Virus record (IMG/VR): IMGVR_UViG_2654587570_000006
From: a virus
Taxonomy: Duplodnaviria > Heunggongvirae > Uroviricota > Caudoviricetes
Strand: one strand, 5' to 3'
Length of the DNA: 15,728 nt
Shown here: positions 3,001 to 9,000 of the stretch, piece after piece
Layout of the letters: the number at the start of each line of letters is the position of its first letter
Position numbering within the stretch: the stretch's first letter is position 1
Made by a program: the position numbers

Positions 3001-6000
3001 CTGGACAGCATGGGCCAATGACGTTCGCACAATGCGGATGCTGGATGGCAGAACTCACAGACAAATTTGTGAAATGTTTGGGCGTCTCCAGCGGGATTCG
3101 TTCTGGGTAAAAAACATCATGAGTCCGGCAAAACTCCGGGAAAAATGGGATGAACTGGTTATCCGCCTGGGGCGTTCGCCTGCGCAGCGTTGCGTGAATC
3201 ACATTTCTGAACCGGACACTGAAATACCGCCGGGATTCAGGGGGTGACGTGTCATGAAAAACATTGCGGCAGTTGGGGTTCTTGAACGTATTCGCAGACT
3301 TGCACCACAGGGGTCGGTTCCACCGTACCGGACGGTGGAGGAGTGGCGGGAATGGCAACTTGCTGAAGGACGAAAACGCAGCGAGGAGATTAACCGCCAG
3401 AATCGCCAGTTGCGGGTGGAAAAAATCCTGAATCGTTCGGGCATCCAGCCTCTGCACAGCAAATGCTCGTTTGCAAATTATCAGGTGCAGAACGACGGGC
3501 AAAAATACGCGCTGAGCCAGGCCAAATCCATAGCTGACGAACTGATGACCGGGTGCACGAATTTTGTGTTCAGCGGTAAAACCGGCACCGGGAAAAATCA
3601 CCTTGCAGCGGCGATGGGCAACCGGCTGATGGTGAAGGGGCGCAGCGTGATTATCGTCACCGTGTCTGACGTCATGAGCGTGTTGCATGACAGCTACGAC
3701 AACGGCAAATCCGGGGAAAAATTTTTACAGGAGCTTTGCGGGGTTGATTTGCTGGTCCTGGATGAAATAGGCGTTCAGCGGGAGACGAAAAACGAGCAGG
3801 TGGTATTGCACCAGATAATTGATCGCCGGACAGCATCACTGTGCAGTGTCGGGATGTTAACAAACCTGAATCATGCCGCAATGAGTACGCTTCTTGGTGA
3901 GAGGATTATGGACCGCATGACCATGAACGGTGGTCGATGGGTGACGTTTAACTGGGATAGCTGGCGTCCAAATGTCAGCAATATGAGGGTTGTGAAGTAA
4001 TTTTGTCCGGAGGAAATTTTAATGGAAACCGTATCTGACGCACTGAAAGCACTGAAAAAAGCCTCTTCACATGTGGTGGCAGCTCGCCTTGGAATCAGTC
4101 GTGAAGAGGCTGTCAACGAGCTGTGGGAACTCAAAAGAAATGGCGTCGTTGATAAAACTGGTCACACCTGGTTTCTGGCTGGCGAAGGTGAATCCCGGGT
4201 AACCGAAGAGCGGCCAGTAAAATCTGAAGCACAGGATATGCTGACCGGGGAGGTCGAACAAAAAGTTACCGCAGACATGATGATTGAGTTTATCGGTCAG
4301 GATGGGGCTAAAACGTGTGAGGAACTGGCGGGTAAGTTCGGTGTCAGTACTCGCAAGGTTGCTTCCACGCTGGCGGTGGTAACCGCAACGGGGCGGCTGG
4401 CACGCGTTAATCAGAACGGTAAATTTCGTTACTGCATGCCGGGCGATAATTTACCAGCAGAGCCGAAAGCCGCGCTGGTAACGGAAAGTGATGGTAAGGC
4501 CTTTCCTCAGCCAGCAGGTGCTGCGTTACCAGGCCGGGAAGCCGCAACACAGGAAGAAATTAAAACAGAAACTGTGGCGGACATTGTGCAGTCGTTGCCA
4601 TCGTTTACCGAAACGCAAGCAGATGAGCTGATTTTTCCGTCCCTGCGCAGGGCAAACCTGGCGCTGCGCAGGGCGAAAAGTGATGTTCAGAAGTGGGAGC
4701 GAGTCTGCGCCGCGCTGCGGGAGCTGAACAAGCACCGGGATATTGTTCGACAGATTACTGATTCTTCCCGCCGTGTTGTATCGGAAAAGTGATTGCCGGA
4801 GGTGCTTATGGCAAAAGTATTTACACAAGAAGAGCGGGAAAAAATTAAAGGGCAGGTTGTTGAGCTAGTACGCCGGAGTGGGCGCGAGACGTTACGGCAA
4901 CTGGAAGCCAAGACAGGTGCGACAAGATATCTGATGAGTGTTCTCGCCAGAGAGCTGGTTGCCAGTGGCGATGTATACAACTCTGGTTACGGGTTATTCC
5001 CGTCTGAACAGGCGCGTAAGGACTGGCAAAACGCCCGCAAAAAACTCTCAAGGGCAAATCTGAAGAAACCATCTGTGGTTGATCCTGACCTTATCTGGCC
5101 ATTACCAGACGGAGAAATACGCCGCTACGACAGGCGTCAAAACATAATCTGTAGCGAGTGCCGGAAGAGCGAAGCTATGCAGCGTGTACTGGCTTTCTAT
5201 CAGGGTAATTTTCAGAAGGTGCTGTTGTGAGCCAAATTAACAATCGGAACTTCGTGAAGAGAAAGCATAATCCAAATCTGAATAATTAAGTTCAGCACTG
5301 TAAATAAAATTTAATCCTTAACTGGAGGTATATCTATGTCAAATACACAGAAAATTATTAACACTGAAAAATATAACGAGTGGGTGAAAAAATTCTCTGA
5401 GCAGATTTTTAAAATTACTGGCGACGAGAATGTGGCAAAAAATGAATTGGAACCGTGGACACCTGAAGGAAACGCACCAAATTATTGCTGGTGGGAGGTT
5501 GATCCGGTTGATGCTGCAAATGAAGCCATGAGTTACCACAACGATTAATGTCGGGAGGCCGCCCGAAAGGGCGGTAAGAAATGACTACATTATTCAGAAA
5601 AGAATATCCGCAAAAAAGTAGGGCGACAGAATTTTTGTTTCTCATTCTGTTTATCGTATTGATGATACCGATATCCCCTCTAATTTTTGTCTGGGCAATC
5701 GGGAAAATAATTGAGCCAGTTACTGAATTGTATAACGACGTGGTATGGGCGTCATTCAACACACTGCACAATAAAATTAATCCGTATAAGGAAAACTGAT
5801 ATGGCAACTTTGACAAAAAAAGAACGGGCATGGTTGAACGAATTACAGGAAGTTCTTGATCGCTGTCCATCACCGAAAAAAATTGGCTTTTACACCATTG
5901 GCGATAAAAGCATTTACCTGTATGACCTACGCCGCATGGATGAAATCATGGAGGCTCTTGATAATCGTTCGTCGATGGATTGGTGTGTTGCTGTTCATGA

Positions 6001-9000
6001 TATGAATGCAGGGTTTGATGAAAAGATTTTGTTCCCCTCATCAGTTGAAAGCACTGCGGGTTAAGGAGTAACACATGACCACTATTACCAAAGAACGTAT
6101 TGAATTGTTCATTAAATTTTCAGGAGGCGGTACTGTGAGTGAAATTAGCTATCAGGCTTCAATTACCGCTGGCATTCGCATCAAAGGAGAGGAGCATGGA
6201 AATAAAACCAGAGGATGAGTTAAGCAATATCGTTTTATTTCCGGTAAAAGAGGATGACCCTCGTAATCAGGTTAATTTTCTTTATGAGCCATCGGAAAGA
6301 CCATATTGTCATCACGCCTCTGTCCGGGTTGACGAAAAAGAGCGTCAGGTCCGCTGTAAAATCTGCGGTGCAGTTGTGGAACCATTTGACTGGATGCTCT
6401 CTGTGGCGAAAAGAGAAACCAGACTGGCAGATGATGTAAGGCTCTTGCGTCAGGAGGAGCGGGAAAGGCGAAAAAATATAGAAAAGCTAATTCAGATTGA
6501 GCGTAACGCGAAAGCGCGGATACGCAGGGCGACAAAATCCAGAACTGAATAATTAAATTTAGCTCTGTTAAAAATTTAATCCTTAACCGGAGGGATTTCT
6601 GCACCCTCAGAACATCAGGAGGCCGCCCGAAAGGGCGGTAGTTAAATGCGAAAGTTTAAAATAATTATTGAAACGGGAATAGCCGGTGGAGATTTCGAGG
6701 ATGAATTCGAAGTGGATGATGATGCGACGCCTGATGAAATACATGACGAAGCAAAAGATATTTTCTTTAACTACTGCAATTACTCATATCACGAAATAAA
6801 AGACGAAGAGGAAGAACAAAATGGCTGATTTTGGTTCAACTAAATACAACGTCGGTTTTGAAGAATGGCATGAACTGTTAATGGACTATGCAGAGTTACG
6901 TGGTGGCAGTGCTGCTGATGCTGAAGCATGGCGTGATGATTATGAAGCAGGAAAAACTCCGGTCGAAGCATATTGTGATGAGTGGGGCGATGAATGAGCG
7001 AGGTTAATTATCAGGAAGGGCATGAAACGGCGGGGCAAGCAAAAACAGTGGCATGGCGATATCGCTACGTGAAAAAAAGGCGTTACGGACTTTCAGGGGA
7101 AGTAGTGGTCTGGTGACTGGAAATATGTACCGAAAAAAGAGGATTGTAACGACAGGCCGAACTATGAAATTCAGGCCTTATTCACTGCCCCGCCAGTCCC
7201 GGTTACATCAGAAGAACTGGTTAAAGCTGTGCACTTTTATGAACAACTAAAATGCGAAAATCCACCAGCATCCGGAAACCTGATTACAGATTCCCAGATA
7301 AGGCAATGAGCTACCTGGCGCAGAACGGGCTGATAAGTATGGGGAATGTTTTACGATGAATATTTAGACTAAAGAGTTTGTAACGCTATGTAAGTGATTT
7401 TTTCTGGTTTAGATATTTATATGTCCGGCTAAATTGAGGTGTGTTTAAATGTTATTGCACATTGATTGTAGGGGGAATAATGAAAAACGCATTGCAGTTT
7501 TTGTTTGTTGCGTTCTGGTTGTTCGCATCATGTATGCCCATCATCTTCACAGCAAGGTATATGGAAAAAGTTGATGTTTTGATATTAATGTTTGGACATA
7601 TAAATGCCCTTTTTTTAGGGGTGTTCATGGCGGTCATGTGCATTGAATACTGGCGGTAAATACAGCGAACGCCATTGGTTTAGTTGGATATTTACTGTGC
7701 CGGACAAAAACGGTTTGCGGGGAAATCTTAGTTAAGTAGAATGACTGCGGGTGCTTGAGGCTATCTGTCTCAGGCATGAACACCAAAAGGCAGATAGAGA
7801 AAAGCCCCAGTTAACATTACGCGTCCTGCAAGACGCTTAACATTAATCTGAGGCCATATCTATGCGACACATAGAGATTAGCCTCTTACGGACCGAAAGG
7901 TCAAGGAGAAGCAGGCTATGAAGCAGCAAAAGGCGATGTTAATCGCCCTGATCGTCATCTGTTTAACCGTCATAGTGACGGCACTGGTAACGAGGAAAGA
8001 CCTCTGCGAGGTACGAATCCGAACCGGCCAGACGGAGGTCGCTGTCTTCACAGCTTACGAACCTGAGGAGTAAGAGACCAGGCGAGGGGGAAATCCCTCG
8101 CCACCTCTGATGAGTCAGGCATCCTCAACGCACCCGCACTTAACCCGCTTCGGCGGGTTTTGTTTTTTCCTGGCATTCTGGTTTACAATTCGCACGTCAG
8201 CCTGAACACCTGACACCTGCTGCGCCAGTAGAGAAAACAGATGGCGCACAAAACCAAATTTCACAATTCTGATACCGACCTTGCCATCCGGCATGGGCGG
8301 CGTTCACACGCATTTAAAACCGACTGGTACCAACACCCACCATGTACTGAAGAACAGGCCGAATGGCTAATTCATAACTACCGCAGACGCGGATACGAGA
8401 TTAAGAAAGCCCTCAGCCTCGATTATCGTCACTGGATAATCTATGTCAGGCTCCCTTATTCCGAACGCCCACCGCGTCCGTCCCGCACATTCCAGCAACG
8501 CATCTGGAGGTAACGTGCGGGTATTACTTCGACCTGTTCCGGTACCGGAACTTGGGCTGGTGGTGCTAAAACCGGGCCGTGAATCCATGCAGGTATTTCA
8601 TAACCCTCGAGTTCTGGTGGAGCCGGAACCGAAAAGCATGCGCGGTCTGCCGTCCGGAGTCGTTCCTGCTGTTCGCCAGCCGCTGGCGGAGGATAAATCA
8701 TTACTGCCATTTTTCAGCGATGAGCGGGTGATTCGTGCTGCTGGTGGTGCTGGTGCATTGTCTGACTGGCTGTTACGCCACATTAAATCCTGCCAGTGGC
8801 CTCATGGTGACTACCATCACAGTGAAACCGTCATACATCGTTACGGTACCGGCGCGATGGTGTTGTGCTGGCACTGCGACAACCAGCTGCGTAACCAGAC
8901 TTCCGAATCACTCGGGCAGCTTGCTCACCAAAACCTGTCAGCATGGATGATTGATGTCATCCGCCACGCAATGAATGGCACGCAGGAGCGGGAATTATCG

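Follow-up and report, generated by a model that had tools for sequence, protein, structure and literature searches.

The window examined here, a stretch of 15,728 nucleotides (nt) from IMG/VR record IMGVR_UViG_2654587570_000006, carries two copies of a sequence of about 70 nt, which we call M, at two gene junctions within a run of small genes. Very probably M is a shared intercistronic junction whose flanking genes have been reassorted between prophages, and its two copies were brought into one molecule by the tandem stacking of two alternative gene arrays. M lies in the early-right operon of E. coli prophages of the Rac-like and lambdoid types, where it joins the final codons and stop of the preceding gene, whatever that gene is, to an A/T-rich spacer and a Shine-Dalgarno (SD) sequence. 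One copy (copy A) would serve as the initiation region of a 70-codon gene, g70; in the other (copy B) g70 is absent, the SD is followed by a 21-nt filler, and the next gene would be served by a second SD placed ahead of a stable GNRA hairpin (module H). The same ~70 bp, lying between unrelated small genes, would then supply the homology for general or phage-recombinase-mediated crossovers. The anatomy and distribution of M, the reassortment of its flanks and the hybrid origin of the arrays can be read from sequence comparison.

Over 98% of its length the window is 98.3% identical to a prophage in the chromosome of E. coli O111:H2 strain 12A, and its gene calls are taken from the annotation of that near-identical prophage by the Prokaryotic Genome Annotation Pipeline (PGAP). 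From this match and its gene content we identify it as an E. coli Rac-like lambdoid prophage with an early-right operon. The variable small-gene region, which contains both copies of M, starts after the conserved gene lygF.

The two copies of M

The features needed to follow the argument are:

5266-5335, plus strand: M copy A; vestiges of the 3'-terminal codons and stop of an upstream gene since lost, AT-rich spacer, SD.
6533-6600, plus strand: M copy B; last six codons and TAA of g118, AT-rich spacer, GGAGGG without a start codon.
5278-5295 in copy A, counterpart 6545-6562 in copy B, plus strand: small inverted repeat CTGAAT-AATTAA-GTTCAG at the left end of M (RNA fold).
4808-5230, plus strand: lygF (DUF977, Ren-like exclusion family; PGAP; Pfam DUF977, 5e-31; PHROG 142).
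5231-5265, plus strand: spacer between lygF and M, termed U2 in the classification of upstream flanks.
5336-5548, plus strand: g70, 70 aa, PHROG 4659, optional gene to the right of M (PGAP; presence or absence across loci).
6196-6552, plus strand: g118, 118 aa, zinc-ribbon-like, PHROG 1621, optional gene to the left of M (PGAP, Pfam, PHROGs).

A repeat search of the window returned two pairs, 5266-5307 with 6533-6574 (81% identity, 42 nt) and 5306-5335 with 6571-6600 (90%, 30 nt), which alignment merges into a single ~70-nt repeat, 5266-5335 against 6533-6600, with one 2-nt indel; by blastn the copies are 82.9% identical over 70 nt. A first-pass annotation of this DNA had described boundary modules of about 50 bp and about 85% identity at 5278-5328 and 6545-6593. 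The identity is borne out (44 of 51 columns, ~86%), as is the repeat itself, but the length was underestimated, since the homology runs 12 nt further left. A chance repeat is rejected: a 30-mer of copy A matches copy B alone at up to three mismatches, where 0.00 matches were expected (200 shuffles). The same stretch contains two further direct repeats, the H pair described below and a pair formed by the lygF 3' end and the sequence just past its stop (5207-5245 against 6115-6153, 77% identity).

In copy A, GGAGG at 5324-5328 stands 7 nt ahead of the g70 ATG at 5336, as first annotated, and we read this copy as the ordinary translation-initiation region of g70. The earlier description gave each copy an in-frame TAA, which is correct for copy B, where TAA 6550-6552 is the stop of g118, and not for copy A, whose homologous TAA (5283-5285) ends no gene. 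This TAA context is vestigial and not in frame, because lygF stops at 5228-5230 and the same frame closes again at 5268-5270. The vestigial codons resemble the 3' end of g118 and that of a different gene, which precedes M in another contig (L064), to much the same degree. A micro-ORF (open reading frame) of 20 codons at 5227-5289, overlapping the lygF stop, was rejected: it is broken in two other loci (L071 and L026), so that the U2 spacer is taken as non-coding. The small inverted repeat at the left end of M is weak, its CTGAAT/GTTCAG pairing surviving in variants only through G-U or G-C changes.

In copy B, GGAGGG (6589-6594) has no ATG, GTG or TTG behind it, and the next gene, with its ATG at 6646, is preceded by AGGAGG at 6617-6622 and a hairpin at 6623-6638, in agreement with the first reading of this SD as lacking a start codon and of the next gene as using the hairpin module. 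A CTG-initiated ORF behind this SD was set aside, the start being non-canonical and the downstream sequence variable. The term 'orphaned' holds for the absence of a start; it does not hold if it implies decay, since the form with the filler as right flank is the commoner one (77+12 of the 134 occurrences of M described below). We regard this form as common, possibly original, and not clearly decayed.

Alternative flanks and probable exchange at M

IMG/VR was scanned with a 20-base core of M, which gave 134 occurrences in 120 contigs; the patterns used to fetch loci lay within M or H, and many of the contigs are near-duplicates. M was also found in about 20 GenBank phages, and some 190 related loci were compared in all. 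The full context of copy B (g118, M, filler, H) is present in 1476 of 5426 complete E. coli genomes. In a collection with one representative genome for each species, the core occurs in E. coli, Shigella flexneri and a few contigs of gut metagenome-assembled genomes (MAGs), the last of which may be contamination or chance, a 20-base pattern being expected about once in 596 Gb. Matches to the core were obtained in MAGs assigned to Lachnospiraceae, Collinsella and Bacteroidales and in an isolate assembly of Otoolea muris (L127, L132-L136); they may stem from E. coli prophage DNA that contaminates gut MAG bins, or from AT-rich sequence that matches by chance.

Gene content differs between genomes on both sides of M. 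To the left, either the 3' end of g118 (state U1) or the short non-coding lygF spacer with vestigial codons, as in copy A (state U2), adjoins it; to the right lies either the start of g70, as in copy A (state D1), or, as in copy B, GGAGGG, the 21-nt filler GATTTCTGCACCCTCAGAACA and H (state D2). The U2 spacer is an empty slot, filled in other prophages by the 118-aa gene. Two phages show the underlying orders most directly. ArgO145 has an unbroken order g118, M, g70, H and DUF7167 gene, and 813R8, which matches window 6112-6648, has lygF, a 57-nt spacer, g118, M, filler, H and DUF7167 gene; it is from these orders that M can be recognised as the 3'-terminal codons and stop of the gene before it, the intergenic spacer and the SD of g70. 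ArgO145 (L004) itself holds two copies of M, one after g118 (1866-1931) and one, with a 5-nt deletion, after an Ead/Ea22-like gene (3158-3208). M further occurs behind the gene of L064 mentioned above, which is without a Pfam match, and in one additional context (L119). The right half of M with filler and H is also found behind another, more diverged left part in mEp460_4F5 and phiSTEC1589, and the same arrangement recurs in 30 of 54 further contigs retrieved with the H pattern.

All four combinations of flanks are found: U1/D1 in 13 occurrences, U1/D2 in 77, U2/D1 in 24 and U2/D2 in 12, corresponding to 8, 34, 5 and 8 distinct 130-nt contexts, respectively. In every combination identical scars directly flank M on each side, so that reassortment requires either crossovers within ~70 bp or repeated identical deletions. 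An indel inside M (TGTTAAAAAT or TGTAAATAAAAT) likewise shows all four combinations with each flank state. When the window is compared with all retrieved loci, the points at which homology ends are concentrated at the edges of M (5230-5260, 5320-5330, 6530-6540 and 6590-6600), as well as at the edges of H (5550-5590 and 6610-6640) and at gene borders. Finally, the order lygF, U2, M, filler, H and DUF7167 gene, which is the arrangement predicted from a crossover between copies A and B, exists in two contigs (L017 and L105); the tandem array of the window contains three direct-repeat pairs, and the products of crossing over between them correspond to arrangements in other prophages. In a small sample, the right half of M (0.041) is about as diverse in nucleotides as the third codon positions of g118 (0.050), and M looks to be conserved by descent, without sign of strong extra constraint.

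These observations support the interpretation that M has served as a crossover and junction sequence and that its copies are boundary sequences marking breakpoints of gene gain and loss. They uphold the proposal of the first-pass annotation that the copies mark such breakpoints in an accessory hotspot: flank content varies, in four combinations, with end-points at the edges of both copies. The comparison with related prophages that it recommended shows different small genes flanking M, and not a local duplication whose similarity goes no further. Exchange at M is also mechanistically plausible, because recombinases of the Red-beta type need only ~30 bp and tolerate divergence, and traces of homologous recombination have been described beside ~30% of recent mosaics (PMC3945230).

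Several points weigh against this interpretation. Exchange within M is deduced from population data and not from an observed event, and the four-gamete argument assumes a single origin for each flank state, whereas deletions or insertions that struck the same points more than once would look like recombination. The frequencies are biased by the way in which the loci were fetched and by the many near-duplicates, and clustering of end-points at gene borders would equally be given by illegitimate recombination followed by selection. The diversity of the filler (0.010) is below the ~0.04 of neighbouring non-coding DNA, and the region from M to H folds better than its shuffles (z -3.35), which together make an RNA function beyond that of a spacer possible. 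As to the recombination enzymes, and to M having no function beyond translation initiation and homology, we infer both.

The idea that the filler is a remnant of a g70 deletion was not sustained, since only ~8-12 nt adjoining the second SD, and the 'TCT' before the ATG, can be aligned, and the 14 nt between the aligned parts have no counterpart. In five contigs (L071, L082, L088, L093 and L107; IMG/VR) the filler starts with a run of 7-9 G (GGAGGGGGGGGCTGCACCC) instead of GGAGGGATTTCTGCACCC; this tract, equivalent to window 6594-6598, is a homopolymer whose length varies between contigs. In ArgO145 the small genes appear in an early-left region of the ea/exo-xis type, not after the replication genes, and from this placement the gene set associated with M seems to move between operons.

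Origin of the two copies

The part of the window between the two copies of M contains the following features:

6075-6114, plus strand: ~13 codons from the start of an eaA-like gene, which is cut short by the joint.
6112-6116: illegitimate recombination joint, eaA to the last 24 nt of a second lygF allele.
6115-6195, plus strand: 3' remnant of the second lygF allele (6115-6138) and lygF-g118 spacer; matches 813R8, in which lygF is intact.

Two types of contig account for the two halves of the region. Contigs with the first array, lygF-M-g70-H-DUF4014-g87-eaA, match window 4798-6116 at 97-98%, after which homology is lost; contigs with the second, lygF-g118-M-filler-H-DUF7167, match 6115-8000 at 98.6-99.4%, the match beginning within their own lygF, which is only 89.5% identical to the lygF of the window. 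The first ~15-20 nt of the U2 spacer are homologous to the sequence after lygF in the second array. The joint connects eaA (…TTCATTAAA|AACCCG…) with lygF (…GGTAA|TTTTCAGGAGG…), TAA being the sole sequence that the two share, and other loci continue ...TTCATTAAAAACCCGCTT... as full-length eaA (annotation of L002). The joint is common to eight retrieved loci and is present in 73 of 5426 complete E. coli genomes. As the match to the first array ends at 6116 and that to the second starts at 6115, the window is a hybrid of two parents, in which a single illegitimate crossover stacked two alternative arrays in tandem. The two M, two H and two lygF 3' ends are diverged alleles from the two parental arrays, and the copies of M became co-resident through the join at ~6112-6116, not through exchange at M itself. 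The 47-aa ORF annotated across the joint (6075-6218, WP_000207966.1) comprises 13 eaA codons fused out of frame to the lygF remnant and spacer; it is a chimeric artefact of the joint and probably not a real gene.

The two copies might instead be a simple local tandem duplication that has since diverged, in which case they would be silent on modular exchange. They are direct repeats on the same strand, 1267 bp apart, with two other direct-repeat pairs nearby, as a duplication would leave them. Against this, single-copy contigs carry exact counterparts over 75 nt, 15 of them identical to copy A and 33 to copy B, and each copy has flanks 97-99% identical to those of a different single-copy lineage, against only ~83% identity between the copies themselves; moreover, 5 of 24 positions distinguish the two 3' ends of lygF, and the repeat unit is bounded by a joint of two non-homologous genes. 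On the single-copy counterparts and the flank identities we reject local duplication, which we consider extremely improbable.

The hairpin module and the leader hypothesis

Downstream of both copies of M lies module H, with the following surroundings:

5551-5576, plus strand: H copy A; GGGAGG and CCGCCC-GAAA-GGGCGG, 6 nt before the DUF4014 ATG at 5581 (repeats; fold z -3.1).
6590-6608, plus strand: predicted small hairpin GAGGG-(9 nt)-CCCTC, which pairs the orphan SD and includes part of the filler (minimum free energy, MFE, fold).
~6594-6614: 21-nt 'D2' filler, between orphan SD and H in copy B.
6615-6640, plus strand: H copy B; AGGAGG 6617-6622, stem-loop 6623-6638 (repeats, fold).
5581-5799: DUF4014 gene (PGAP of matching prophage).
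5801-6064: g87 (PGAP of matching prophage).
6646-6828, plus strand: DUF7167 gene, one of at least six alternative genes behind H (PGAP, Pfam, flank survey).
6821-6997: g58 (PGAP of matching prophage).

The two copies of H (5551-5576 and 6615-6640) are 96% identical, and in each the SD lies 22-23 nt from the ATG, a distance that falls to 6-7 nt when the stem-loop is excluded (in copy B from 23 to 7, for ATG 6646). An SD placed too far from its AUG, with a hairpin between them that restores the spacing, is the arrangement of a split initiation region, and by analogy with the model of T4 genes 38 and 25 H is likely to be a region of this type. Across the retrieved loci H is nearly always preceded by the filler or by the 3' end of g70 and is followed by at least six unrelated gene families; in the related prophages its SD, hairpin and A/T-rich spacer are reused before at least six different small genes.

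These properties raise an alternative in which the right half of M, the filler and H together form a functional structured RNA leader, a portable cassette of ~70-110 nt controlling translation or stability, with the first SD sequestered in the GAGGG/CCCTC hairpin and the second brought near the AUG by the GNRA hairpin. The MFE fold of 6540-6660 contains both hairpins (z -3.35; 0 of 200 shuffles as stable), pairing GAGGG 6590-6594 of the orphan SD with CCCTC 6604-6608, and the H hairpin is present in the centroid fold too. Over 40 variants pairing is kept in 99% of cells for GAGGG/CCCTC, with only G-U changes, and in 94.6% for H, which includes one compensatory change (CCACCC/GGGTGG) and one loop change that is still GNRA (GAAA to GGCA). 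The low diversity of the filler, the presence of the unit ahead of unrelated genes and the T4 precedent of split initiation regions (PMC3014915) point the same way, as do the spacers between hairpin and ATG (TAGTTAA, TAAGAA, TAATGA and TAATAAATA), which are 6-11 nt long, A/T-rich and mostly without an SD of their own. Nevertheless, covariation support for both hairpins over the 40 variants was no better than in column shuffles (247-313 of 500 reach the observed values), because the variant sequences are so similar; the changes are nearly all C-to-T transitions, which give G-U pairs anyway, and in sequences so closely related conservation may just reflect recent ancestry. In addition, Rfam yields no match at E<=1 and one downstream family (start MGITKERLL...) has its own GGAG behind the hairpin. 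We hold such a leader to be unlikely, though the main rival of the reading given above; the fuller version, a plug-in cassette for accessory genes with a decoy SD in the small hairpin and a second SD bridged by the tetraloop hairpin, in which the orphan-SD form would be original and g70 a later insertion, is somewhat more doubtful still.

Transcription signals and site-specific recombination

That M might carry promoter activity was a hedged suggestion of the first reading, and it finds no support: a consensus scan returned no sigma-70-like pair of -35 and -10 hexamers at 16-18 nt spacing on the plus strand in or near either copy of M or the variant of mEp460_4F5. M is AT-rich, with TAAAAT- and TTTAAT-like hexamers, and the alternative left part seen in other phages shows, by eye, a CTGACA...TTAAAT arrangement, which is what a promoter or other transcription signal for the downstream small genes would call for; yet the best hexamers found by eye are without the required A2 or T6, or have a -35 match of 2-3 of 6, their positions shift among copies, and the region lies within a long co-oriented early operon. 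We rate such a signal as improbable. The consensus scan also found no intrinsic terminator, a GC-rich stem with a run of T behind it, at M or H, the hairpin being followed by TAGTTAAATG or TAAGAAATG, and the Rfam covariance-model search identified no family, only a chance CRISPR-DR match elsewhere (E 0.22).

It is less credible still that small gene cassettes are inserted and excised at M by a site-specific system, with M as an integron-like attC or a homing-endonuclease site. Small promoterless genes with a recurring sequence between them, its imperfect inverted repeat coming right behind the stop, would suit such a system, and an HNH endonuclease gene is present in the same gene cluster of ArgO145. 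However, PGAP and Pfam show neither an integrase nor an endonuclease gene within the hotspot of the window or next to it, the left edge of homology varies (-17 nt, -5 nt or mid-M), the attC core motifs (RYYYAAC / GTTRRRY), read from sequence, are unmatched, and one joint in the window is plainly illegitimate. With no integrase, no core motifs and variable joints, the attC reading is rejected. The interpretation of M as a shared junction reassorted by exchange is the one that we retain.

Other features of the window

In the matching prophage PGAP annotates, in the early-right operon, a LexA-family repressor, Cro/CI, YdaT, replication genes, DUF1627 (ydaW-like) and DUF977 (lygF), and, downstream of the small-gene run, hokD, DUF968, RusA and a DUF1133 protein. 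Pfam and PHROGs provided no functions for the small genes, g118 having a weak zinc-ribbon match. The gene after g58 (window 6994-7359) is frameshifted, with an internal stop, in the annotation of the near-identical prophage, and a cluster of homology breakpoints lies inside it at ~7260-7270. According to the same annotation the hokD toxin gene is at 7918-8073, tRNA-Ile and tRNA-Arg genes are at ~12166-12415 and iraM is at 13312-13647 on the minus strand; downstream of the hotspot, these are typical lambdoid accessory cargo. At 2611-2707, within a helix-turn-helix (replication-initiator-like) gene (2270-3247), at least four repeats of the type TTGACCCGT with 15-bp spacing, together with a 33-nt inverted repeat, resemble origin iterons inside an O-like gene, as in lambda.

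Comparison with known systems

To our knowledge, neither the sequence of M nor its locus (after lygF in Rac-like prophages; the ea region of Shiga toxin (Stx) phages) has been described; a literature search for LygF gave nothing relevant, and one on ea22 and the exo-xis region nothing on these junctions. Copy B contains AGCTCTGTTAAAAATTTAA, which we take to resemble the boxA of nutL plus spacer, and the H hairpin, GCCC-purine-rich loop-GGGC, is likewise reminiscent of lambda nut sites. In contrast to nut, the boxA-like core is not preserved when M is compared between copies (AGCACTG, AGCGCTG), ~45 nt or an entire gene separates it from the hairpin, the early promoter is a long way upstream, and the loop of H is a 4-nt GAAA tetraloop where that of boxB has 5 nt; a nut-like boxA/boxB reading was rejected, as the core is not kept among copies and spacing and position are wrong. 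With integron attC sites M shares an imperfect inverted repeat right behind the stops of small, promoterless, arrayed genes, but it lacks an integrase and core-site motifs, its joints are variable and its repeats are much shorter.

The likeness of H to T4 genes 38 and 25 is closer. In these the SD is separated from the AUG by a hairpin, the spacing in gene 38 being reduced from 22 to 5 nt (PMC3014915), and H similarly puts AGGAGG 22-23 nt from the ATG with a 16-nt stem-loop between, leaving 6-7 nt when looped out. H differs in being unrelated in sequence, in lying in an accessory region of a temperate coliphage and in its reuse before at least six genes.

Mosaic joints at gene boundaries that arise by illegitimate recombination are described in earlier work (Hendrix 1999; Juhala 2000, on HK97/HK022; both as cited in PMC3029335). 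The joint between eaA and the lygF remnant is of this kind, with 3 nt of microhomology, a chimeric ORF and an inherited lineage (the 73 of 5426 E. coli genomes above). It differs in lying inside two genes and not at a boundary, and the M and H junctions differ in having flanking homology, which most of the published joints lack.

For lambdoid phages it has been suggested that homologous exchange takes place at short boundary sequences that are conserved (Clark 2001, on HK620; Susskind & Botstein 1978; both as cited in PMC3029335). In common with them M is a conserved short sequence at a gene junction, both copies spanning stop, spacer and SD, and it is flanked by alternative, non-homologous genes in different genomes, with reassortment of flanks and homology for exchange. 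Unlike the linkers of that description, its edges are not sharp, its halves occur separately, and it is simply the 3' end and ribosome-binding region of its neighbours and not a dedicated linker. The locus displays in sequence both proposed routes to mosaicism, homologous exchange at short shared junctions (M and H) and an illegitimate join at 3 nt of microhomology, and its three direct-repeat pairs make the tandem array a convenient substrate for measuring recombination at homologies of ~70 bp and ~85% identity. The presence and absence of genes around M is a clear but ordinary case of lambdoid genome shuffling, and M is a new, well-resolved example of a known phenomenon, the lambdoid boundary sequence, which leaves current understanding unchanged.

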